From: Pecten maximus
Lineage: Eukaryota
Direction of reading: 5' to 3'
Length of the DNA: 64,000 nt
Assembly: GCF_902652985.1 (NCBI RefSeq)
Contig: NC_047019.1
Coordinates: forward strand, 1,426,001-1,490,000
Shown here: piece by piece, positions 8,480 to 58,587 of the stretch
Layout: every line of letters begins with the position of its first letter
Position numbering within the stretch: position 1 is the first letter of the stretch
The notes under the pieces: generated by a model
Seen by the model: only the letters and a program-made list of their open reading frames with translations
The model's database searches: none
Told to the model about the DNA's origin: nothing
Made by a program: the position numbers and the translations under genes

Positions 8480-10198
8480 TCAGAAAACATACTCCAGAGA
8501 ATCCGTGATACTATCACGTAAACGTTTGGGCAGTGGCAACCGCGCGGCTTGGTCTATTTTCCGGCCACAACTGACCCACACAGTAAACACACACCACTTA
8601 CGAAGTGACCAGACGTCCGAAACTCGCTTCTCGTACTCGTCCTTGATTCCCGCCAAAATCCGCGCGTGTTTCGATGACGGCTGCTCAAAACTAGCCGCCA
8701 TGTTGTTGAAGATTTCAAACGAATCTCGCAACGCTGCTTGGGCCATCGAGTCCATAACAAATGTACTGTGCTGTACATCTACAACGTGTGAGCTGTCAGA
8801 GTTTGTAGCGTATGCCAAAAGTTGTTCGAAAAACACATTTATAGGGTAATACCCGTATACCATTACATCCGGGTTTGCGCCATGACGTAGAAGAAGTTTT
8901 AGCATTTTCCCGCCAAGTCCAATTTTCGGAGCAATTCTGCAGAAACAATGTAGACTGTTTCCGTAGGTATCACACTGATCTTCAACTCGTCCCACGTAGT
9001 TTAAATCTGCTCCGTGTTTCAGCAAGGCCTCTGTACATTTCCCTAGATGACTTCTGAGAGAAAGCTTTTGTTCAATTTGTACCTGTTCCGAGTACTTCCC
9101 AATGGTGTCGAACAAACAATGCATGGCAGAGGAAAATGCAGCTCTTCCAAACGCTGCAGCTGCATTGAATTTTCTTTTCGTAAGCTCCTTTTCGAATTCT
9201 AGTTCGTCAAAGTTTGGGTCAGCACCAGCATTGAGCATGATCAGAAGACATGCTAGGAGATATGGGGACGAGTTGTCCAAGTCATGACACGACGAGTGGG
9301 ATAATAGGCTATACAGTGGGTATGTCCGATAGGGAAGACACTTCGACAAGTCGTGTGAATGCTTGATGAGGAGAGTCGTGACGGTAAGCAATGATTCATA
9401 CCAAGATTTCTTAAATGAGAGACTGTATGAGAAGAGAACATGATACAGATTCATGCCACCAAACAAAGAACTGATGTCAGGTTTTAGTCCCAATAAAACG
9501 TCCAAACATTCTGGTCGGGCCATTTTCAGGGCAACTCCAACAGCATTTTTAATGTCCTCTTCTGTCGGCTTGTGTGATAGAAGTAAGCGGAGAGCGGGCG
9601 GGGAGTCCAGCTCACAAGCTAGGTTAACATAAGCCTCCTTGGTACTCTTAGCTTTATGCCTTACTTTGCCTCCATAAAAATGGTCTAGGATAGTATACAC
9701 ACAGCCAATATGCCCGTACTCGCCAGCTATGTCCAGAGGAGACAACTTATCTTTACCGCTCATCACGGGTATCCTCATGGCTTTAGGGGAATCCCCACTT
9801 AACCCTGTCGGGCCGTAATATTTGAACTCCATTGGGGTATTGTCTTGGCCTCGTTCTTGAATCAACATAGAAAGAATTGTCTTGTGTCCAAGTCTTGCAC
9901 ACAAGTGAAGATATGGCACTGAAGGAGATTCATGAGGAAGTTTGAAATACCCTTTATGGAAGAACAGTCCTACAGCCTCGATGTTATTGGTTATTATAGC
10001 GTGATGTAGAATATCGAGGTCATCCTGGTCCATATACCATTCAATGGCAGCCTTGGAAAATTTGTCGATTCCGTCTTTCAATAACGACGCTTCATTTGTA
10101 GATTTCAGTAAATCGACAATACTTTTAACGCTTTCAGCCGGTTTATCCATGACAGAAGAAAATGGAGTTACTTGTGGTGTCTTTTGTAAACGAAGCAT
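8480..10198 (-). CDS. Ankyrin repeat and SOCS box protein (ASB-like E3 ligase substrate adaptor), single coding exon
   Basis: 572-aa uninterrupted ORF. Ankyrin motifs: ILHHAIITNN, YLHLCARLGH, SPLDIAGEYGHIGCV, LNAGADPN, LLKHGADLN, LLLRHGANPD. C-terminal SOCS box SLRKWCVFTV...LPLPKRLRDSI. The true start may be the second Met (MDK, 10150). Confidence 0.9.
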   Translation of the reverse strand: MLRLQKTPQVTPFSSVMDKPAESVKSIVDLLKSTNEASLLKDGIDKFSKAAIEWYMDQDDLDILHHAIITNNIEAVGLFFHKGYFKLPHESPSVPYLHLCARLGHKTILSMLIQERGQDNTPMEFKYYGPTGLSGDSPKAMRIPVMSGKDKLSPLDIAGEYGHIGCVYTILDHFYGGKVRHKAKSTKEAYVNLACELDSPPALRLLLSHKPTEEDIKNAVGVALKMARPECLDVLLGLKPDISSLFGGMNLYHVLFSYSLSFKKSWYESLLTVTTLLIKHSHDLSKCLPYRTYPLYSLLSHSSCHDLDNSSPYLLACLLIMLNAGADPNFDELEFEKELTKRKFNAAAAFGRAAFSSAMHCLFDTIGKYSEQVQIEQKLSLRSHLGKCTEALLKHGADLNYVGRVEDQCDTYGNSLHCFCRIAPKIGLGGKMLKLLLRHGANPDVMVYGYYPINVFFEQLLAYATNSDSSHVVDVQHSTFVMDSMAQAALRDSFEIFNNMAASFEQPSSKHARILAGIKDEYEKRVSDVWSLRKWCVFTVWVSCGRKIDQAARLPLPKRLRDSITDSLEYVF

Positions 10199-13100
10199 GT
10201 ATTCATTACGGCAATAAATTGTTTCGCCATTCCTATGTTTGTGACATTGTCAGGTCATAAGCACCATAGTTTTTTGTTGTGACATGTAACACGTATACAT
10301 GTGTAGTAGGAGTTTTAACACATGTACAGTACATGAGCGGGGCCTACACATTTAAATGCCCGATACATACATTATAGGTCTATAGAGTTACAGCGTTGTC
10401 CTTTGGGTCTCTTCTCTTCTCTTCTCTGTTGTGTTGTTTGCTTAAATGATCTTAATCTACTGTGTCCATTTAAAAACATCTACATCGATAAATGTTAGGC
10501 AAGTCGCTGGTATCGGTTTAAATGCACTCACGCATACCTGTTCCGACTACCAGTGATAAGTGTTAATGATTTATAATGACACACGAAAAGTTGCGTGCAT
10601 AGTTTCCTGATCATGGTCATTGAGGTGTTCGTTGTTATTGATTCTATTCAACTATAAACTCGACATTATCAAACATTTGTACGACCTAAATCTGATCAAA
10701 CTAAAGTTTGAAGCAGAAATAGTAGAACAGTCCGGACAATCCTATAATTACGATTTATAAAGTATTTTGAACCTAATTCTGTTTTAAGTTAAAAATATGT
10801 CTGTATACCTGTACATCATTCCAATGTTTATTATCTAGTTGAATAAAAAAAAATAGGCTTTGATTATGACAGAGTCTTAATTCAACATTTTCTGCATTAT
10901 ACTTTGTATAATACCTCATGCAATTTCCAATTTATATGTAGTGTGTAATTGATAAGACTTTTTTGTGTGTTTAGTAACACTTTACCTTATATAACCTAAA
11001 TTTATGTGTGGTGTGTAAGAGGTTTCACCTAATGTAATATCTTATAGGGTATATTACTTCAGAAATTTTTATTTCAGCACCTTTAGAATCTTAAGGTCAA
11101 TACTTTTCTTTCATTTAATGCACCGCATATCTGAACACTGTAATAAACAATGTAATGCCTATTTTTATGGACATGGAATTTCTGTAGTATTGAATTCTCC
11201 CTCTTTTGTTCACCGAATCAGGATCATCATAGTATCATTAAAAAGTCTTAGCCTGTTGTTTTTCAGAAGGAATTTCTTGTAAATGAAAAGTTGACGACAG
11301 ACAGCTGTCTCGGGAAGGACGGAACAATGGCCACCGCACCATGGCATAATATCAGTTGTCCTTAGGGCAGGAGATCTAAACAAGAAGATTATAGCGTTGT
11401 TCATTTTACAATAATATATATATATATATATATATTAACCGTTCACCGATTGGAGAATGTTTTTTTAGGAACAGTACATATATACCATCTTTATAACATC
11501 ACTGCAAAGATACCACAGTAGATATCAACTGCTTATGGAGATTTTCAAATGTTTCATATCGTGTTGAGGTACGGTATGACATGCAAATTTTATAATATAA
11601 CGAACTTCATATATTACTTCTCATTTACTTTTCCTTTGAACATCGTTATAAAACATCACTACCCTTTTCACTGACCACAACATCGTTTCAGTTAACATGT
11701 ATTTTTTATCTTCATATACCAATAACCATTAGACAGCACGCAAAGTGTCTATAATCATTAATTACTATGACATAATCAATAACCCAGTTGAGATTCTGTA
11801 AATTGATGAAGTTGAAATATTATACCAGTTTAAAAGCCAAACATGTCTTTCCTCTGTGAGTTTCCAAGAAAAATGCTATGTTTCGATCTGTCAATCATTT
11901 TGTATTCTACAGAAAATTGTTGAGAATCATGACTTCAATCTTGCCAGTGAACTTCGCTACTTTGATCATTATGAAACGGGTTAATTATTGGAAAATGGGC
12001 CTTTTTAGGAAATTATCTTGCTGTCACATTTTTGGTACAAATTTATATCAATTAAACGTTGTGTGGAAATTACATCACTTTTAAGAATTTTATTTTAAAT
12101 GTCAATTTTCATACCATAATAAGCATACATACGATTCCTGTTTCCGTGTTCAGTCAGACGATGTAACGAGTGTATACTATCCCCACATCAGATGAACCGT
12201 TTCTTCTCCTGCTCAGTGTAAAGTTTGTCATCAATACCAACGCATTGTGGACTGCTCTTAATTCCACAACGATTACAGGGGACCATTGTGGAAGTCCATA
12301 AACACACCAGACATTGTTGGTAGTCTTACATTTCTCAATACTTTTGCCTCATGGAGACTAAGTCGGAAGCCTTCCTATGATTCAATAAACATAATCTACT
12401 CATTACATGGCCATTTTTTTCTGCATTTTAATACGCATGCTAAATTTAACCACAGTATTATATGGTATAGTATTGGCCTCTACCTCCCGTAATGCTTTCT
12501 TCTTCAGGAGATCGACATTGGCAGACTGATCTAAATTAAACTTATTATGCATTACCTACATGTACCTCTGTTTATGTTTCATTATAAATAAATCATTGTA
12601 TTGTTGTCATGTTACTAGTTTCATCAAAAGAGAACTTATTGATAATTTGTTGTGTTGCATATAAATGATAATGACCTCTTGCTATCCTTTCAAGAGGTGC
12701 CATTAGTTGGGGACACTGAGGTCTCAAGTGGTCACCCACACCACATAAAGCGGCTCCTCTTCACCTGAACCTGGGGTATGGCTTAACCACTGTGGTGTAC
12801 AGGTTGGCTAAAGTTGATGGGGTACACTCCTGAAACTGCTTAATATTTCTCTGGAGGCATCCAGCTATGAATAGGACCCGAGGGAAACCTATATTTCAAA
12901 ATAGCAATGAACTGTTAAGTTACCATTGTCAGTATATGGAACACAAAGAGGACATTTATGTATTGAACTGCTTTCATTCGGAAGTTATGGGCTGATGAAT
13001 GCCAACTGGACAAAGGCAAATTTAATTACTTATATTGCTCGGTTACTGCACCCTCATTCCTCACAGGGGAAAAGATACATTGAATATTTCCATAACAATA

Positions 13101-47973: not shown

Positions 47974-50900
47974 ATGGAAATCGGGATAAAAGAAAATGAC
48001 CATACCGACGACCCATCTGAGGAATATCCTCAGCGTCACAAACAAAAGACTGCCGCACAATACGAACAGAAACCCGAGGACGATGTACAAACACCGCCTT
48101 TACAAACAAAACAGACAGATGATCCAGGCACACAAAATCCACAATCTCCCAGAAAGGAACATCGACAAAACCCAAAGGCAGAGAATTCTAAAAGTGGTGG
48201 GAATAAGAAGAAGGGAAACGCACCAAAGAAGAAACCTGAACAAAAGCATACATACCATGGACTGTGTGATGTTATCTTCCACTACCTCTCCAGCACAGAG
48301 ACTGCAAGGAGGTTCCTCCACGGCAAACTCCCGTCCAACGTCACGGTCCTGAAACAGAATGAGGAGGAGGAAGGTGGGAATCAGTAAATCATGTCTGTTT
48401 ATTTTTTCGTGAAACGAATAAAAAAAATCTTTATCTTAACACTTTATCAAACATACAAGTCTGATTAATCAGAAAGATATGTAGTTACGCCTTAATATAA
48501 CAATATGTCATCGGTATGCTTCTATAAAAAAATCAATAACACGACTTCTTAACTATAGTACAGGTCGTACTAAGCGGAATGCACTGTATTAATGAGGTAT
48601 TTTTATCTTTTAGTTTTAGGTCAATGAAACATTATGGTGGCTTTTAATTGCTACATTTTCTCTTTGTATTTAATATCTTTTTTTCTCACTTTCTAGGGGA
48701 GAAATCTTTTGCTGATTGTAACCGAAGCCTACGGTCCACGCTGGACCTCCCTGTGGGCACCATTGTACAGGATATTGAAACATTGCTATTCCGAGCCTGG
48801 TTTTGTTACCAAGAAGAAGCCGAGATGTTGGCATGGATGGAGGTTCTGCCGGCAGAACGTCGGGCCTACAGCCTATCTAACAAGCTAGCTTCTATTAACA
48901 TGCTCGCAGGCACAGTGTCCGGGGGTGCTATGGTATCGCCAACTGTATTTGTCAACCATTGGTCGATCCCGCAAAATGTGCAAGTCACATTTGAACACGA
49001 TGAAGAAGTTTTGTCTATCACCAGAGTGCAGTTAACCACTAACCCTTCTGAAGAAGTCAAGGAGGTGATGGAAATACCATATAATACATTAACTGATACC
49101 GTGATAGCCCATTACAGCAACAATGCATGGTGCCTTTACATTGGATTGAAAAACCCACCAAAACTGCTGGAAAAATCTCAGACTCAGAGACGAAAATCTA
49201 CCTTTATCGAGGAGAAAAGGTTGGTTCGCCTGTCATCCGTCACAATTGAAGATATAGGCGATACGTCTGTATTATGTATAGAAGTTCCTGACGTTAAAAC
49301 ATCCGGGTCCTGTGCGAAGAAGGAATCAGGTGAACAAGATGGAATGTGGGCGGTTATAGCCAGACTAAAGCGGCACGGTTTCTCCATTTCCTATGCCAGC
49401 GTTTCAAATATAGCCTCAGAGGACCGCCAAGTAAGCGAAATTAAGTTCAACACATTTGATCTTGATTATGCATGGGAATGTCTTCTCTCTTGCGGATTTA
49501 AAGTCAGAGATGCTATAACTCAGCAGGCGATGGTGATGCTTGAGGAACAAAAATCTGCTCTGACTCCAGAAATTTTCCATGAAATGACAATTTCAGCTGA
49601 CATTAGTCAGTTTTTCGAATTCGAAAGAATTCTAGCGAAAAGCCTACAAAATGTCTACCGTCCGAATGTCATAGACGAAAGGGAGGAGCTACCGTCTCAT
49701 TTTTCTTTGACACGGCGTATCGTTGTTACTCCAACACGGATGATTCCACTTCGGAAAGAGCCAATTGTCCAAAATAGGATTATTCGCCAATATAATGACG
49801 ACTTCTTCATCCGTGTGATATTCAGAGATGAAGATTTTACACGATTGAGTGCTGCACGTTCGGAAGGATTGAAGAATATCACGGGACGGATACGAAAATT
49901 CATGGACGCTGGATTCAAAATTGGTGAAAGGAGATATGAGTTCTTAGCCTGTTCAAACAGCCAGCTACGTGAACACGGAGTGTGGTTCTTTTGTCCAAAC
50001 AACGGCGAGACTGCAGAAAGCATCAGAATCGCGGCTGGTGACCTCACAAAAGAGACTTGCATTGCCAAGTATGTGTCGCGCATGGGTTTGTGTTTCTCTG
50101 CGTCTAGAGCTACAGTTGAAGTCGACGTAGACCATGGTTCTGTGAAATTCACTGAGGACATAAAATCAGGACCTTTTTGCTTCACAGACGGCATAGGGAA
50201 GATATCAGTTCCCTTGGCGAAAAAGGTAAAACCAACACGAGAGACAATAGCCCGATATCAATCTTAGATTAGAGACAATAGCCCGATATCAATCTTAGAT
50301 TAGAGACAATAGCCCGATATCAATTTTAAATTAGAGACTATATCCGGATATCAATCTTGAATAAGAGACTATATCCGGATATCGATCTTGAATTAAAGAC
50401 AATAGCCGGATATCTACCTAAGTGTAACGCCAAATATCTTCATATCTTATATTTTATTCTACCTCCCCACAAACAATATCAAAATATTGGTTGATATTGA
50501 TATTCTACTTTATAGTATTCACTAAGATGGCCTTATAACCCTCTTTATGCATCTCCTGTCAGCGTACTTTAAAACACTTGCATTATGTTAAAAATAACTG
50601 ATATATTTTAACTGCAGTTATAAATCTCGATACCGACCGCGTTTGTAGCAAATAATACAGAAATAAAAAAAAATCAATAAAAAAAAAAAAAAAAAAATCT
50701 TTGTTTCCTAATTTTTAACAGTCTTAAAAAAATCTGAGAGATGATGATCACTTTGTGAAATTGTTCGTACTCCAGGACAATAAAACAACAATACAGTAAT
50801 GAGCATGTATCTCTGTTTTTAGGTTGCGGATTCATTACGGATGGATCCAGTTCCCTCCGCATTTCAGATCCGTTACGGTGGCTGTAAAGGTGTCGTCTCC

Positions 50901-53900
50901 AAGGATCCCACTCTTGGAAATTCAGAGCAAATCCACATCCGAGAAAGCATGCGCAAATTTGATTCTCCATCGAAAAATCTTGAAATATTACAGACAACTC
51001 ATCCAGGTAATTACAAAATGATTACTTAAAACGTTAAAATGACTTGTTAATTACCCTCGCAAAACAAAATAACAACAAACAAAAAAAAACAAAAAAAAAG
51101 AACACCTTTCTCTTGAACAGATAACATAGATAACATATCCATCAGAAACATTATCTATTTATGATGTGTTTGATTAAATCACCAGGTCAGCTATACCTAA
51201 ACAGACAAGTGATCACTCTAATGTCTGGCCTTGGAGTCCCAGATACAGTATTCCTATCACTGCAGGAGAAAATGCTCTTCAACATGGCTGACATGCTTAT
51301 TCGTAGCAGCAGAGCCCTGCGTGCACTAGCAGATGTAAGTTTGTGTTAAGCGTGTTCGGTTTTGTTTTATACAATTTATAATGACATAAAAACTAAAACA
51401 GCAATTTGGTTATTGTCATTGAATTATGCCATCATATATCTGTTTAACATGAGAACGGCTGATATTTCACTTGTATAGGAAAAATCAACTGATATAACAT
51501 ATAGATTTAGTATGTACTATATCAACCCCAAAAAATAACCAGTGAAAAGAGGGGTGCCCATTTAGGCCTTTCTACAGCAAATCAGTGATAGTGATAATAT
51601 TTTGAAAGAAGATCATTTCAAGATTTGAAGAATTAAGTTGAAAAAACAGTAGATAATGATAAAGTAGGTCAAGTTGACATTTTTTATGTGAAATACTTTA
51701 AGAAATTACTAAAATCTTCCATTAACAAACCCAATATATTGACAACGATTACGGTATCATGATGTCCTGGAGATAATCCATATTTGTCGAGTAACTGATC
51801 CGCAGAAAGCAATGTGACCTTGACCTACTTTATAATTTATTTACTGTTTTTATCAACTGAAATATTAAAAGATGCTAGTTATTTAACAGCTTACTGCAAT
51901 ATTTAGTTTGTAAGAACTTCAACAACATCAAAATGTTCATTTTACACCCTCCCACTTTGACCCCAATTTTTCTATGCGCCAACACAAAATCGGATGTTTT
52001 GAACATTATGCAAGATGCAGCTCATATCAAAGTATTTTCCTGCAAAATGTTAATTTTATCACTGAATTACCACAGAAAGGTCCAAATTGGCAGCCCTCCT
52101 TAGGTATCATTTCCTCATTATGCAGAATTTACTATAGTCAATGGTTCTCTTCAAAGATAAACGGAACATTCTACTTTCATTATTATATAAACCAGGATTA
52201 TAATTGACATTCAGAGTATAACAGTTTGTACTGGTGCTCAGTAGTGTCACTAACATAATATTTCATGTAATTAAATATCAGTTATATAAGTTTGTTCATC
52301 ACTAATTACAGGTCAATATAGGAATAAGATATAAGGACTTGATGAAGGCTGGGATATCTTTTACTGACGAAGCGTTCTTCAGATCAGTGCTGATGACAAT
52401 ATACAAACGCAAACTTGGTGAGTTGATCCGAAAAACCAGAATTGAAGTAGATTATGACCAGGGCAGAATCATGATGGGAGTTGTCGACGAGACAGGGATA
52501 CTGATGTATGGACAAGTCTTTATCTCATACACGAAGCATGACGGAATGAATTTCAAAGGTACTCAGATTCTTGAGACAGAAGTCGTCGTCGCTAAAAATC
52601 CCTGCTTTCATCCAGGTGATTTGCGTAAATTCCAGGCAGTTGATGTACCAGAACTCCATCATCTCGAAGACTGTATTGTTTTCCCTCAAAAAGGACAAAG
52701 ACCACACCCAAATGAGATGTCTGGCTCAGATTTAGATGGAGACATGTACTTTGTGTGTTGGGATAAGTCTATGCATCCTCCGGGAGAAAACAAAGAAGCC
52801 ATGGACTATGGAAATGCTATCCAGCAAAACATATACAGAACAGTGCAAGTGTCGGATGTGACAAACTTTATATCAGAATACATCAGAAACGATCAGCTAG
52901 GCGTTATCGCCAATGCACACGTTGTGCATGCAGACTTAAAAAATATATTTTGTCCAGAATGTATCACACTATCGAAGAAACATTCGGATGCCGTAGATTT
53001 TCCAAAGACCGGGGTTGTACCAGAAATGACTGCTGACTTGAGATGTGAAAAGTATCCAGATTTTATGATGAAATCTGACAAACCTCGATATACATCGAAT
53101 GGTGTATTGGGGAAATTGTACCGCCAATGTAGATCATTGGAGCAAGCCCACAACCGTACGTATGATTTGGACCTTCTCCAAAGCGCCACTGTTGTTGATA
53201 CGACCTTGCGGTATCCTGGATACGAAACATACTTAGACTCTGCACGTCTATCCTACGACATGTACAATGAAAAGATCTTACAATTGATGTCTCTATACGG
53301 AATAGAAACTGAAGCAGAAATTGTCACCGGTATCATACAGAAACTCAAGAAGAAGCGTGGTTACCTCCAGAATGAAAAATACGAAGTAGGGAAAATAATC
53401 CAGGGCAAGATGAGCGTTATCAGGCAAAAGGTGCGTAATGACTTCTTCGAGGAGTTCGGCGGGGAAGAGGAAGGAAAATCCCTTTCTTCAGGGAACAGGA
53501 ACAAATTCCTTGCAAAAACGTCGGCATGGTACGTTGTTGCCTATGACGTAAGGTTTCAGAGCGTCACGACAGGGAAGCGGTTTGTGAGTTTCCCGTGGAT
53601 AATGAGTGAGTTTCTGTCTGATATAAAGGCAACTGCAGGTCACTCTACTAGCGGAGAAACCATTAACATACCAACTGATCAAGAACGATTAATGCTGGTC
53701 CGAATAGGTTCTTCAGTAATTCGGCATTACGATATGAGATACGAAGAGCGAATGTACACATTTCAGCTTCTGAATGAATGTGTTGACTTGATTTCTCGTA
53801 ACCTCCATCGGCATTATGACACAACGATACGTTTGTCACTAACAGGAATGCAGTCTTTGTGTCTGATGGATATGTACTCTCGCGAAATTTGCATCTGTCT

Positions 53901-55953
53901 GCAATCGGAAAAGCGATTGAGCCCCCCTGATTTCAATAGACTGGTTGATAGTGTTATGCATGGTTGTTGGCCTGTAGCTCAAGGATCATTCTTGTTTCCA
54001 CTATATGAGGAAACAGTGACTGTCACTTTCACCCAAGATACCGTCAACGTGCAGAGAACGAATTTCATCAGGCAACAACTGCAGACACGTCCATGCTATA
54101 CACTCATCATGACATTTCTTCTCGACTGGGCGAGGAAGTATGGACTTATTGGAAGATCGAGAATGTCATCGTTTAACGAAGTTGTCTTTGCAATACTGGT
54201 TCTCCACCTCCTGTCAGATGGTGACAATAACTCCACAAAATCAATACGTGACGACGTTAGGCAAACAGATGGATCTCCTTGCTTTCCGGGAAAGATTACA
54301 TCGAACGACCAGGCTGACACAGCTAGGCTGCTGCTGGCCGTCTTAAGGACGTTCAACTCTTTACTGAAAAGAGATCAGAAAGGTGACATCCGAATACAAA
54401 CGGTAGATCCGACAGATAGGAACGGCAAACGTTTGCTAGTGCCCAAAAAACTGGAATGGAGGACATGCAAACATCTGATAGAGGAAATTCTCTTCGCTTA
54501 CCAAGAAATTGCAAAATCCCGATCGGTCAATGTCTTCTTTGAACACAAGATCATTGAAGAGAGTCACCTAATGATGAATCTGCCGTTGGAAATATGGGGA
54601 TCTGTGATGCACGCAGAAACTTACACTGCCAGGAGGCTGTCAGAAGAAACTGGTGCCGAAATCAGCATACGAAGGAAGTCATTTAGGGATACCCCAGGGC
54701 TTATACTTGAAGCGTGGGGAACAAGCGAGGCACTGTTCAATGTTCAACAATCCCTTCAAGATCTCAACGATAAATCCTCTAAGTTCATTACCACCTCAGC
54801 CCGTGACAAAGCCTTCATTGATGGCGCGTTCAAGCACTTATTTTACGGGGCAACAAGTTCTGAGCAGCAACTCACATTCACACGGTATTACGGCAAACGT
54901 CAACCGCATCACAAGGAACTCCCGTTATACGTTGCGTCCGTTGACTCACCCAACCAGGATACCAGTGTATGTCAAGACATGTTTAAAGAAGTATTCCGGA
55001 GACAGTTAGAGGTTATCCGACAGGATTTCGAGAACACCTACCACGGAGATCTTAGAATGGCACTAACATTTGGAATATACTACTTAATCTATGTAGATAA
55101 CCCACAGTTCACGATTTCAGAACTTGAAATGGAAATGGAAAGCCATGCCAACCGCGCGGAAAAAAAGTTAGAACTGAACTTGCCAGGACGTGGGAGATGG
55201 CGAAATCGCAAAAGGCACGGTCGTTTTACAAAACCTAAACCAAGACATATACGTGGATCGTTCATGCCTGTTGAATGTGACAAAAGCAATGTCGGTGCTT
55301 TCCTTGAAAACTCTTGTTTTAAAGAACGTCATGAAGAAGTGAAATATCACGCAACCTTTTCGATCGGCAATCAAGATTATGGGAAACGACACGAAGGTCT
55401 CGTAATCCTTGACAAAGATCTCGTATTCATTGAAATGCGGCTGTCAGACTTGAAGTGGATGGCTGTTGACGTCTGTCGTGGGTATGGGGGCAAGTCCAAT
55501 ACGAATAAACGCTTGGATGTCCGATGTAAACTTCAGTCAAGACGTGTCATGGATTTGGAGGGAGTGCAGGAAATGGCAGATACGAAAGTCCTCTTGGATC
55601 GTAACACACCTGTATTGGTGAAACCAAGCATTAATGCCCTGTATGTTTCTACGGAGTTTAGGGACAGAGTATCGTTCGTGAGAGAGAAGCATGTGAAATC
55701 GTACCGTTACGACGGCCCAGTGAATGAGTACAGCATATGGCGGGACATGAGTATTGAAATAGCACGTGTAGTTGAGTATTCAATACCAGATGCAAGTGGC
55801 AGATTTCAGGACATAGTGGAAAAACAGGAAGCCACTGTGTTACCTAAACTTCCTCAACTGGAAACAGCAGATGCTGAATGGGAGCAGTACGCACAAGACA
55901 TCTGGGAACTTATAGAATATTTAGGGAAACAGTTTGATTCAGACATGATGTAG
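47974..55953 (+). CDS. Cellular RNA-dependent RNA polymerase (RNAi-type, RDR/Rdp1/EGO-1 family), ~1967 aa, with a long C-terminal multidomain extension
   Basis: Phase-compatible coding exons 47974-48373, 48697-50225, 50823-51006, 51186-51334 and 52312-55953 (5904 nt). Family motifs: VTPTR, NRIIRQY..FIRVIFRDE, YEFLACSNSQLREHG.WFF, KYVSRMGLCFS, FTDGIGKIS, PSAFQIRYGGCKG, YLNRQVI, MMGVVDETG.L.YGQVFI, KNPCFHPGD, FPQKG.RPHPNEMSGSDLDGD.YFVCWD (catalytic, 52729-52743), HSDAVDFPKTG, YPDFM, FPW. Start codon less certain. Confidence 0.95.
50241..50412. repeat. 31-bp tandem repeat, ~5 copies (RdRP intron)
   Basis: Unit GAGACAATAGCCCGATATCAATCTTAGATTA. Confidence 0.9.
51547..52100. mobile_element. MITE-like element with imperfect ~44-bp inverted ends, containing an inner inverted-repeat pair (51637-51860)
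   Basis: AGAGGGGTGCCCATTTAGGCCTTTCTACAGCAAATCAGTGATA versus TATCACTGAATTACCACAGAAAGGTCCAAATTGGCAGCCCTCCT. Inner pair TAAAGTAGGTCAAG / CTTGACCTACTTTA. Confidence 0.55.
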
Positions 55954-56122
55954 AAGAGAACTTATAGAATATTTAGGGAAACAGTTTGATTCAGACATGA
56001 TGTAGAAGAGAACTCATAGAATATTTAGGGGAACAGTTTGATCCAGACATGATGTAGAAGAGAACTTATAGAAAATTTAGGGGAACAGTTCGATTCAAAC
56101 ATGATGTAGAAGAGAACTTATA
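55906..56122. repeat. 52-bp tandem repeat (4 copies) containing the RdRP stop codon
   Basis: Unit GAACTTATAGAATATTTAGGGAAACAGTTTGATTCAGACATGATGTAGAAGA. Confidence 0.95.
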
Positions 56123-56914
56123 AAATACAAGAAAGTACAGGGTTAAGATGTATCCCAGCATCGTGCCCCACTACCACTATGTTTATGCATATCCTGACTA
56201 GGTTGTCGACTTAGACTTGTGTGATTGTGTGTGGTAGTTAGTTAGGTCCATTTTTTCATCTCAGTTTCAAAAACAGGCTAAGTAATGTTACAGTACTTAC
56301 CATCCTTTATATTTCCATAAGAATACATGCCGTCATGGTTTTCATTTTCAAAGTCATCTATTCTAATGGCTTCCCTTTTGGCACATTGACTTTACATAAG
56401 TGTAGGAACATGACGTCTAGTGTGATAATACTTGTGTACAGTGTACATGTAGACAATCACTATGTATTCCATATTTCGTATTTTACAGTATTACTATTAC
56501 TTATAACGTATACAACTTAAGTATTGCGATTAGTTTTTCCATACACCAAAATATCCAATAGGTTTATCAACATAATATCTAAATTTAATTTCTGTATTTT
56601 CACATTTTGGTTTTGCGTCTAAATCATTTTTCACAAGTTGTGGAAACATTTTGGTATTTAAAATAGCAATAAATTTACTAAAATTATGTCAACAAACACA
56701 TATCTACGTATCAAACCAAGTAGATATTCATTTACGTAAACTGATATTGATCACAACAAGTACACGTCGATTTACTTGAACTGATATATCTCACCCTGTG
56801 AGTCTCCTGTATATCTTAATGTCCCCATCAGAGTAGATAACGCCCTCTCACACTGTGACCCTCCTGTATATCTTAATGTCCCCGTCAGAGAAGGTGATCC
56901 AACTGCTTTAGTCG

Positions 56915-57558
56915 TCCATACATGTTCGACCTGATGACAGGTATGTCTGCTCTGGATCTCCATACATGTTCGACCTGATGACAGGTATGGCTGCTTTGGT
57001 CCTCCATACATGTTCCGCCTGATGACAGATATGTCTGCTTTGGATCTCCATACATGTTAGACCTGATGACAGATATGTCTGCTTTGGATCTCCATACATG
57101 TTCGACCTGATGACAGGTATGTCTGCTTTGGTCCTCCATACATGTTCGACCTGATGACAGGTATGGCTGCTTTGGTCCTCCATACATGTTCCGCCTGATG
57201 ACAGATATGTCTGCTTTGAATCTCCATACATGTTAGACCTGATGACATATATGTCTGCTTTGGATCTCCATACATGTTCGCCATGATGACAGGTATGGCA
57301 GCTTTGGATCTCCATACATGTTCGACCTGATGACAGGTAGGGCTGCTTTGGATCTCCATACATGTTCGACCTGATGACAGGTATGGCTGCTTTGGTCCTC
57401 CATACATGTTCCGCCTGATGACAGATATGTCTGCTTTGGATCTCCATACATGTTAGACCTGATGACAGATATGTCTGCTTTGGATCTCCATACATGTTCG
57501 ACCTGATGACAGGTATGTCTGTTCTGGTCCTCCATACATGTTCGACCTGATGACAGGT
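56915..57558. repeat. 44-bp tandem repeat, ~14 copies
   Basis: Unit CCATACATGTTCGACCTGATGACAGGTATGTCTGCTTTGGATCT; it explains the overlapping repetitive minus-strand ORFs. Confidence 0.96.
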
Positions 57559-58587
57559 AATCAATACGTACACAAAGCATGGCCATTTGTATTGTTGTCC
57601 AGGATTATATACCTCTACACAATAGTGAAATACTTTATGTGATAAAAGTAACCGTGACCCAGACGAAAGTCCTTTACTCATTTTCGAAGAAAGGCCAATA
57701 AGTATAGTTATGACAGGTTCAAAATGCAGTCAAAGCTGCATATAGCGGTCAAGACAAATGTGTTTTTTCTGCAAAGGTTTGATAACTGTGAAACATTTTG
57801 CATAGAAACAGGTGACCTACGTAGATAGTTTTTATGTAGAGTTTGTGAGTTTGCTGTATAGAGGTGATATTTTTATAAAAGGTTTTTTTATGCCTGTGAT
57901 CTTTATAGATTAAATACATTTGGCATCTATACATTTTCTATGATCTTGCTGTTTTTGTTATATACAGGCGAGCGGGGTACAATATAAATTGAAGATTTTG
58001 GTGTTTACTTATACGTGTAGATTTATGACTATAATTGAACATAGTTGTTCAATATGTATTATTGCATTTAGTTTGTGATACATGCATTTTTATATTGTTT
58101 TTCAAATGTATATTTTTGTATATCTTATATTGACCAAATTTATTTGGTATAGAATCATAGAAATGTATTTTTTATAGTTTTTTTTTTTATTATTTTTAAG
58201 ACATTTTAAATGCATAAATACAAAGGAACCACACAATATTTATGGTTTACAATTATCATAATATCATCTTCACCATCATCATGACCAAGATACTTCATCA
58301 TCATCATACTCATCCTCATCATCATTAGTATCATCATTATCATCATCAATTAAACTAGGACGAGAAGTACATATAAAACCATAAATACTCTTATATATGT
58401 GTAAACATTCAGATCAACATACATACACCCTCACACACACATACATATTCAGTTTCCTGGTAGCCTGATCAATCCTGTCGAGGGCTCAGCTTCTGTGTTG
58501 GTCATTGTCATGTAACTTAACATTTGGGATGATAATCAGAAAAATCATGAATTATTTACTGAATATACAGCTTAATGTATGCTAAGA

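Follow-up and report, generated by a model that had tools for sequence, protein, structure and literature searches.

A RESC1/2-like triphosphate-tunnel pseudo-enzyme domain predicted at the C-terminus of a scallop RNA-dependent RNA polymerase

What does an RNA-dependent RNA polymerase (RdRP) of the scallop Pecten maximus carry behind its polymerase domain? The window, by which we mean the whole 64,000-nucleotide stretch analyzed (NC_047019.1, positions 1,426,001 to 1,490,000, forward strand), contains the gene for P0003, an uncharacterised Pecten maximus protein of 1967 amino acids that is identical across the searched region. One third of P0003 was previously without annotation, and its last domain is now assigned a RESC-type tunnel fold on the basis of a predicted structure. 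An initial annotation, made from the letters alone, had proposed for this C-terminus a CYTH/triphosphate-tunnel (RNA triphosphatase-like) fold that either binds 5'-triphosphates or is the relic of a triphosphatase, and that would bring 5'-end, 3'-end and synthesis functions together in one protein.

Predicted fold and tunnel residues

Our assignment comes from an AlphaFold2 model of residues 1583-1967, built from a 63-sequence alignment (predicted local distance difference test, pLDDT, 91.1; predicted template modelling score, pTM, 0.89; 89.9-91.1 across the five models), and from fold searches with that model. In Foldseek there were 17 matches at E <=0.001; the best six rows were all RESC1 or RESC2 (E 1.6e-12 to 3.0e-10), and Pct1 (3e-6) and Cet1 (8.3e-5) came after them. 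A VIA-align fold search of 48,161 chains matched the model to RESC chains 8fn6_1 (Z 21.6, 281 aligned, 3.2 A) and 8fn4_2 (Z 20.9, 239 aligned, 2.9 A) and to the triphosphatases Cet1 (Z 15.8, 225 aligned, 3.6 A) and Pct1 (Z 14.4, 216 aligned, 3.5 A), and a second structural comparison aligned it with 8cdp_B (Z 23.1, 275 aligned, 3.0 A). Rows 1-24 of the VIA-align search all have the tunnel fold (RESC1/2, Cet1, Pct1, viral capping enzymes, CYTH enzymes, VTC, and Mediator chains taken to be Med18/20), while row 25, outside the fold, falls to Z 4.6. In the BFVD viral-structure library the model matched triphosphatases of capping enzymes (best E 1e-5). Chains 8fn4_1 and 8fn6_1 are labelled RESC1 in our profile search, and chains 2 and B are read as RESC2 through the residue ranges in PMC10201420. 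We have very little doubt that the domain is, as predicted, a triphosphate-tunnel barrel of CYTH strand order.

The domain and its parts are as follows:

54817..55935, + strand: RESC1/2-like triphosphate-tunnel pseudo-enzyme domain predicted at the RdRP C-terminus (P0003 residues ~1590-1962, ~370 residues), from the model and fold searches
54829..54942, + strand: N-terminal strand and beta-hairpin with a conserved Y-x-G...H loop, by position the RESC domain-swap hairpin (model strands 12-16, 25-31 and 44-49)
55048..55089, + strand: motif-A-equivalent strand (DLRMALTFG...), with Arg and Ala at the two Cet1 metal-glutamate positions (alignment, model and FG anchor)
55114..55254, + strand: variable insert, a helix and a low-confidence basic RG-rich loop (tract 55189-55254; pLDDT <50 at model 128-136)
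55450..55542, + strand: two tunnel strands with K1802, W1803, D1807, D1823, R1825, K1827 and S1830 (conservation; weak hidden Markov model (HMM) match to RESC1 322-345, E 0.48)
55669..55710, + strand: motif-B-equivalent strand, R1878 and K1880 kept, Val at the third basic position (alignment counts)
55750..55842, + strand: last long hairpin with E1909, K1925 and E1927, the motif-C-equivalent strand holding one acidic residue (model and alignment)

Much of what the initial annotation read from the letters agrees with the model. Its five motif peptides and basic tract each occur once, in the order given and in a single + frame (DLRMALTFG 55048-55074, LDVRCKLQSR 55513-55542, VREKHVKSYRY 55678-55710, IEIARV 55753-55770, QEATVL 55825-55842), and the model places the peptides on strands and the end, to 55935, on a helix. 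The tunnel fold that it suspected is likewise borne out by the predicted structure. Of its range, 55040..55935, the end stands and the start does not, as the domain begins near 54817, some 220 bases further 5', which adds a strand, a hairpin and a long helix. The echo of Cet1/CYTH motifs holds for fold and motif order, with RESC1/2 (Z 21-23) and not Cet1 (Z 16) as the closest relative; from the R.K.R.SY pattern the first two basic residues survive and the third is Val.

The added N-terminal part is informative. Alignments to RESC chains span model 1-385 and begin at residues 1-7, whereas those to Cet1 and Pct1 begin at 54-61. The leading strand and its hairpin (54829-54942) are therefore RESC-specific, and a RESC-type N-terminal hairpin is predicted to be present. 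The RESC subunits exchange this hairpin, which makes RESC an obligate dimer, and it partly covers the bottom of the barrel, where the bound nucleoside points; the RESC barrel also has an insert of helix D and strands 12-13 (PMC10201420). Two tunnel strands of the scallop model are likewise separated by helices (254-267) and strands (274-284), which may correspond to that insert. The basic insert varies from 14 to 304 residues among homologues and is often RG-rich; judging by this composition, it is likely a flexible RNA-binding arm.

Sequence searches gave a different yield. The tunnel domain is covered by 0 Pfam families and does not match PF25477, the tunnel region had 0 phmmer matches to PDB sequences at E 10, the ESM Atlas returned no usable match for P0003 1640-1967, and a metagenome scan found 0 relatives among 30 pattern matches. 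The tunnel-family profile reached RESC1 at E 0.48 and 0.27 at best.

The tunnel residues were judged on homologues. Searching 1.84 billion representatives by phmmer with the C-terminal 467 residues yielded 73 matches at E <=0.001; 77 stored proteins were realigned to 1583-1967, 7 with a match of <=100 residues were dropped, and the other 70 plus the query make 71 rows. In Cet1 the metal is held by E305, E307 and E496 and the phosphate by R393, K409, K456 and R458, and single glutamate losses inactivate both Cet1 and the mimivirus enzyme (PMC10201420). On the scallop motif C strand, at the E496 position, only E1927 is acidic and is followed by T1929 and L1931, leaving no EhEhE run. The register of motif A is set by its FG anchor; in that register R1669 and A1671 occupy the E305 and E307 positions, where an acid is found in 9/59 and 0/59 rows, respectively. 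Across the three metal positions, 41 of the 49 covering rows have no acid, 7 have one, 1 has two and none has three, so that the absence of metal glutamates noticed in the initial annotation is family-wide. Taken in any register, acid-x-acid is seen in 2/48 rows for the motif A strand, in 1/48 for that of motif C and in 0/48 for both strands together. Since the metal glutamates are lost throughout the family, the domain does not look like a Cet1-type enzyme, and we consider Cet1-type hydrolysis very improbable; an active enzyme of this type was rejected as a candidate because no row has the triad.

A set of other residues is strongly conserved. In the 59 rows less than 40% identical to the query (weighted percentages), K/R is found at 1825 (96%), 1878 (91%), 1802 (83%), 1880 (82%) and 1925 (82%), D/E at 1823 (87%), 1909 (92%) and 1927 (95%), and W1803 in 96%; in the hairpin, Y1613 is kept in 85%, G1615 in 80% and H1621 in 85%. 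By plain counts, motif B has K/R at R1878 in 61/65 rows and at K1880 in 56/64. The basic and acidic residues of strands 1823-1829 and 1878-1882 alternate with hydrophobic positions and would for this reason face the tunnel, which suggests that the conserved Arg/Lys/Glu/Trp set lines it.

The gene, its upstream domains and its relatives

By tblastn against the window, P0003 maps to five + strand exons over 47974-55953, and the stop codon is at 55951-55953. A stop-free + frame of 1215 codons extends over 52306-55953. The other parts of the gene are:

about 47974-48373, 48697-50225, 50823-51006 and 51186-51334, + strand: coding exons 1-4 (acidic/basic leader, PH-like domain, RdRP N-half), from tblastn of P0003 and GT..AG joints
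52312..55953, + strand: exon 5, the last coding exon (RdRP C-half, head, nucleotidyltransferase (NTase)-like, KH-like and tunnel domains), from the open frame and the splice joint 51334/52312 in run X1
52729-52743, + strand: RdRP catalytic DLDGD motif, in exon 5 and in the frame shared with the tunnel domain (PF05183 on the full protein)
53674..54543, + strand: domain resembling terminal uridylyltransferases (TUTases) and non-canonical poly(A) polymerases, with neither the GS nor the DxD catalytic motif in scallop (model, fold search, motif check)
54544..54783, + strand: KH-like domain (80 residues) immediately before the tunnel domain, its GxxG loop degenerate (profile matches, secondary structure)

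PF05183 matches the full protein at E 1.6e-176 over residues 477-1027 (profile 1-582), a complete RdRP domain with DxDGD, and the domain order is PH-like, RdRP, head, TUTase-like, KH-like, tunnel. Because DLDGD and the tunnel domain lie in one exon and one stop-free frame, the fusion does not depend on the gene model. Contigs from public runs (4 examined) have GT..AG joints for all four introns: X1 shows every joint, those of introns 1 and 3 recur in X2 and that of intron 2 in X3, and intron 4 is seen in X1 alone. The RNA origin of runs X1, X2 and X3 is a guess, and no single contig spans the whole gene. The transcript is spliced, and a single frame runs from the catalytic site to the tunnel domain. 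An assembly artefact was rejected on the grounds that other bivalves share the architecture and that there are spliced RNA contigs, and a viral origin because the gene has introns and its PF05183 domain is of the cellular type.

Three repeats touch the gene or its surroundings. A 52-bp tandem repeat at 55906-56127 (4.3 copies, 94% matches) begins within the last codons and takes in the stop codon, so that the end of the gene has been copied into the 3' untranslated region; a minisatellite of 31-bp unit (50240-50414) opens intron 2, and one of 44-bp unit (56903-57559) lies downstream of the gene.

A model of residues 1205-1590 (pLDDT 90) covers the two domains ahead of the tunnel. Its NTase-like part, the first ~295 residues, matched CutA (Z 20.5, 267 aligned, 3.5 A), GLD-2 (20.1) and TUT7 (19.6), in rows that span model 6-296, ahead of the KH-like part. 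In homologues the G-S/G of the catalytic motif is kept in 10/27 rows, and acid-x-Asp as well in 2/27 (13/40 rows do not cover the stretch); GS plus acid-x-Asp is kept in P0042 and P0028 and is degenerate in bivalves. The NTase-like domain is predicted to be catalytically dead in scallop. The case for the 3'-end function envisaged in the initial annotation is weak, because the catalytic motif is absent from this domain in scallop. The KH-like part gave profile matches to the KH domains of IGF2BP, Nova and hnRNP K (best E 0.0073) and to DUF7636 (E 0.0065), and a KH domain upstream of the tunnel is weakly supported.

Just past the end of the window, at about 1492074-1499043 (G000:C5; L003 2074-9043), lies a tandem RdRP paralog with an exon layout like that of the P0003 gene, an intact DLDGD and a terminal tunnel domain that is 37% identical. 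Its basic insert is shorter, Trp stands at the R1669 position, and its NTase-like domain is ~85 residues shorter (198/290 positions aligned in its Mizuhopecten counterparts). Both proteins keep R1825, K1827, R1878, K1880, E1909, K1925 and E1927. Searching the scallop genome with the tunnel domain, P0029 and PF05183 gave no loci beyond the two tandem genes, these counts being lower bounds, and all 8 exon matches to PF05183 fall within them. A PF25477 profile search gave no candidate in the scallop genome and no match in any control genome either.

Among the 71 rows, many of which are fragments, the RdRP part is matched in 24, the middle domain in 28 and the KH-like part in 42. An organism could be assigned for 8/30 proteins looked up by cluster. 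The bivalve relatives are from Ostrea, Mizuhopecten, Tegillarca (2), Saccostrea and, via a cluster member, Magallana, and an annelid relative from Paralvinella comes via a 1788-aa cluster member that has RdRP and tunnel domain. P0029, an annotated amphioxus protein of 403 aa, has the tunnel domain and no RdRP; together with P0045, P0051, P0059, P0061, P0064, P0068 and P0080 it makes up a set of 325-471-aa tunnel relatives with no RdRP or KH match, which could be genes in their own right or else exon-level calls. The motif A strand of these polymerase-free relatives carries an additional Arg, and two of the proteins match DUF7903 weakly. In a quick tree of 54 rows the polymerase-less ~350-aa proteins group (7 rows; Shimodaira-Hasegawa-like approximate likelihood ratio test, SH-aLRT, 99), with deep forks unsettled; the insert is short in this stand-alone clade and in the paralog.

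Elsewhere in the window, a 589-codon frame at 8480-10249 on the - strand encodes ankyrin repeats with a weak LRRK2-type ankyrin match.

What the tunnel may bind

We favor, tentatively, the possibility that the inactive tunnel binds the 5'-triphosphate of uncapped RNA and in this way selects templates for the RdRP. That the domain binds 5'-triphosphate RNA in some capacity is somewhat more probable than that it does not, and we prefer the template to the product as the bound RNA. In this scheme uncapped RNAs, for instance those of viruses or transcripts of RNA polymerase III (Pol III), would be caught in the tunnel by their 5'-triphosphate, and the polymerase would favor them over capped mRNA as templates. 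The KH domain and RG-rich loop would keep hold of the body of the RNA, and its 3' end, from which copying proceeds, would be held or positioned by the dead TUTase-like domain. Primary Pol III transcripts begin with a triphosphate. Precedent comes from RESC2, an inactive tunnel that selects 5'-triphosphate RNA (PMC10201420). Our reasons for favoring the template over the product are that: (i) polymerase-free relatives exist, as in amphioxus P0029; (ii) in ticks the RdRP1-dependent small RNAs are 5'-monophosphorylated and derive mostly from Pol III genes and repeats, the link of RdRP1 to Pol III being left unexplained by the authors (PMC10062562) and (iii) no RdRP-type small RNAs were found in amphioxus (PMC6396948).

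Several points weigh against this reading. RESC1, which shares the fold and has basic residues in its tunnel too, is inert to 5'-triphosphate (PMC10201420), the lack of RdRP-derived small RNAs in amphioxus (PMC6396948) also cuts the other way, and the tick link, which would hold only if tick RdRPs carry the tunnel domain, is no more than a lead. The third basic position of motif B (R.K.R.SY register) is V1882, with K/R in 1/63 rows. In an HMM alignment that is itself non-significant (RESC1 266-355, E 0.48), RESC2 K311, one of the two residues changed in a RESC2 double mutant that lost binding (PMC10201420), corresponds to H1767 (K/R in 20/65 rows), and RESC2 R359 to Q1829 (4/66 rows); the RESC1 equivalents in that alignment, S295 and R343, fall on H1767 and Q1829. 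By spacing alone, the other two RESC2 phosphate residues, R402 and R424, would go with the strands of R1878/K1880/V1882 and of E1903. Finally, the homologues were gathered with P0003 as query, which inflates conservation. As far as the aligned letters can tell, the tunnel is basic and conserved and is not a copy of the RESC2 site.

The strongest competitor, which we nevertheless think unlikely, is a scaffold like RESC1 or Med18/Med20 that would not bind triphosphate and would serve dimerisation through the swapped hairpin, as a homodimer or as a heterodimer with the tandem paralog, or docking of a partner. RESC1, inert as it is (PMC10201420), is equally close in fold (Z 21.6), Med18/20 have the tunnel fold too, the hairpin behind the obligate RESC dimer is present in the model, and two RESC2 phosphate positions appear unmatched. 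The tandem paralogs, 37% identical in the tunnel domain, would fit as well and could form a RESC1/RESC2-like pair. Against a scaffold, the most conserved polar residues are on barrel strands, on the face opposite the hydrophobics, and the seven charged residues that both paralogs keep mean that neither resembles an emptied partner.

Less likely again is the version put forward in the initial annotation, in which the tunnel would shield the 5'-triphosphate of the unprimed product of the RdRP itself and pass it to Dicer/Argonaute. The fold evidence serves this as well as it serves template reading. Direct RdRP products carry 5'-triphosphates (PMC6396948), Tetrahymena Dcr2 appears to need the 5'-triphosphate made by Rdr1 (PMC2647294) and protection of guide RNA ends has been proposed for RESC2 (PMC10201420). 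Stand-alone copies make no product themselves, however, and the small RNAs are monophosphorylated in tick (PMC10062562) and were not found in amphioxus (PMC6396948), points that would count only if those RdRPs carry the domain.

We regard as improbable an active enzyme by an unusual route, with a rebuilt site where D1823, E1909 and E1927 could coordinate a metal or serve as a base, or a binder of nucleoside triphosphates, polyphosphate or a cyclic or 3'-phosphate RNA end. These three acidic positions are conserved at 87-95%, and many triphosphates are substrates of CYTH proteins; yet the canonical triad occurs in 0 rows, single losses are enough to inactivate Cet1 and the mimivirus enzyme (PMC10201420), and D1823 aligns with an Asp of the inactive RESC1.

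A functionless relic of a lost triphosphatase, the other suggestion of the initial annotation, is very improbable. The catalytic residues are gone and a few homologues (P0016, P0039, P0071, possibly fragments) end early, but both scallop paralogs have retained the domain, as have other bivalves, an annelid and amphioxus. It is also better conserved than the adjoining NTase-like domain. Compared with two oyster proteins, the RdRP core and the KH-like domain are each 58-59% identical, the tunnel domain 43-44%, the head 39-40% and the NTase-like domain 22-23%; compared with two other scallops the values, in that order, are 83, 79-80, 73-75, 75-76 and 53-56%. Of 22 variant sites in the tunnel domain (a small sample, drawn from 40 of 45 sites and classed singly), half, 11, are synonymous, among them each of the 7 from 55040 to 55630, and 0/22 alter a conserved tunnel residue. 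The strongly conserved Arg/Lys/Glu/Trp set is the ground on which a decaying relic was rejected.

Returning to selection of uncapped templates by the inactive tunnel, this would offer an explanation for the Pol III bias of tick RdRP1 and would make the protein a candidate antiviral sensor in farmed bivalves. A wider proposal, which we hold to be speculative and rather unlikely, is that RESC1/2 belong to an old eukaryotic family of dead tunnels that read 5'-triphosphates, and that the fusion to RdRP in bivalves and annelids senses uncapped RNA, of viral or Pol III origin, and makes double-stranded RNA from it. If true, it would amount to a RIG-I-independent route of pattern recognition and amplification, and would explain why animal RdRPs are retained without nematode-style secondary small interfering RNAs. 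The role of RdRPs in non-nematode animals is an open question (PMC6396948), to which the domain is a possible clue. Within the openly accessible literature we found no description of an RdRP-tunnel/CYTH fusion in animals, and the accessible parts of PMC13650160 (RRF-3 domains), PMC12373286, PMC12876857 and bioRxiv 10.64898/2026.07.10.737666 do not mention one.

Comparison with known systems

Nematode RdRPs of the EGO-1/RRF-1/RRF-3 type (PF05183, PF25359, PF24934 DUF7752, PF24642 DUF7636) share the PH-like domain and RdRP core with P0003. DUF7636 weakly matches the scallop KH-like part and DUF7752 falls on the NTase-like region of one homologue; none of the nematode-type Pfam families spans the scallop tunnel domain. 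DUF7903 (PF25475) is found weakly in 2/40 family members (best E 0.00098, under the 26.5-bit cut-off), both in the RdRP-less clade, and the scallop domain itself gives no match.

An RdRP working with a nucleotidyltransferase is familiar from the RDRC of S. pombe (Rdp1-Cid12) and from Tetrahymena (Rdr1 and nucleotidyltransferases), where the RdRP partners a Cid12-like NTase (PMC2647294). In scallop the two are on one chain and the NTase-like domain, unlike that of RDRC, is without the catalytic motif; a tunnel domain is not mentioned for RDRC in the accessible part of that article. Cet1, Pct1, T. cruzi Cet1 and the mimivirus and vaccinia capping enzymes share the tunnel fold and the motif order (Z 10-16), and the first two basic residues of motif B are common to Cet1-type enzymes and the scallop domain. 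The scallop domain differs from them in having no E305/E307/E496 triad, in the lost third basic residue of motif B and in its extra N-terminal hairpin.

RESC1/RESC2 of Trypanosoma brucei (PDB 8cdp, 8fn4, 8fn6; PF25477), also named GAP2/GAP1, are the best match over the whole domain, hairpin included (Z 20.9-23.1, 238-281 aligned, 2.8-3.2 A). They have likewise lost the metal glutamates and share a D-V-R-x-x-L-x-S-R strand with a Trp on the preceding strand. The differences are an identity of 11-13% with no significant PF25477 match (best E 0.15, in 1/40 members), a basic RG-rich insert, apparent His and Gln where RESC2 has K311 and R359, and context: RESC1/RESC2 form a free mitochondrial heterodimer, whereas the scallop domain is fused behind RdRP, NTase-like and KH-like domains. 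The RESC1/2 structure paper found no characterised sequence homologues for these proteins and describes RNA tunnel triphosphatases as usually absent from animals (PMC10201420). Our assignment would put relatives of RESC1/2, and a fold like that of the RNA tunnel triphosphatases, in animals. By its fold and its loss of glutamates the scallop domain resembles the RESC family, and we predict it to be a RESC1/2-like tunnel pseudo-enzyme carried on animal RdRPs.

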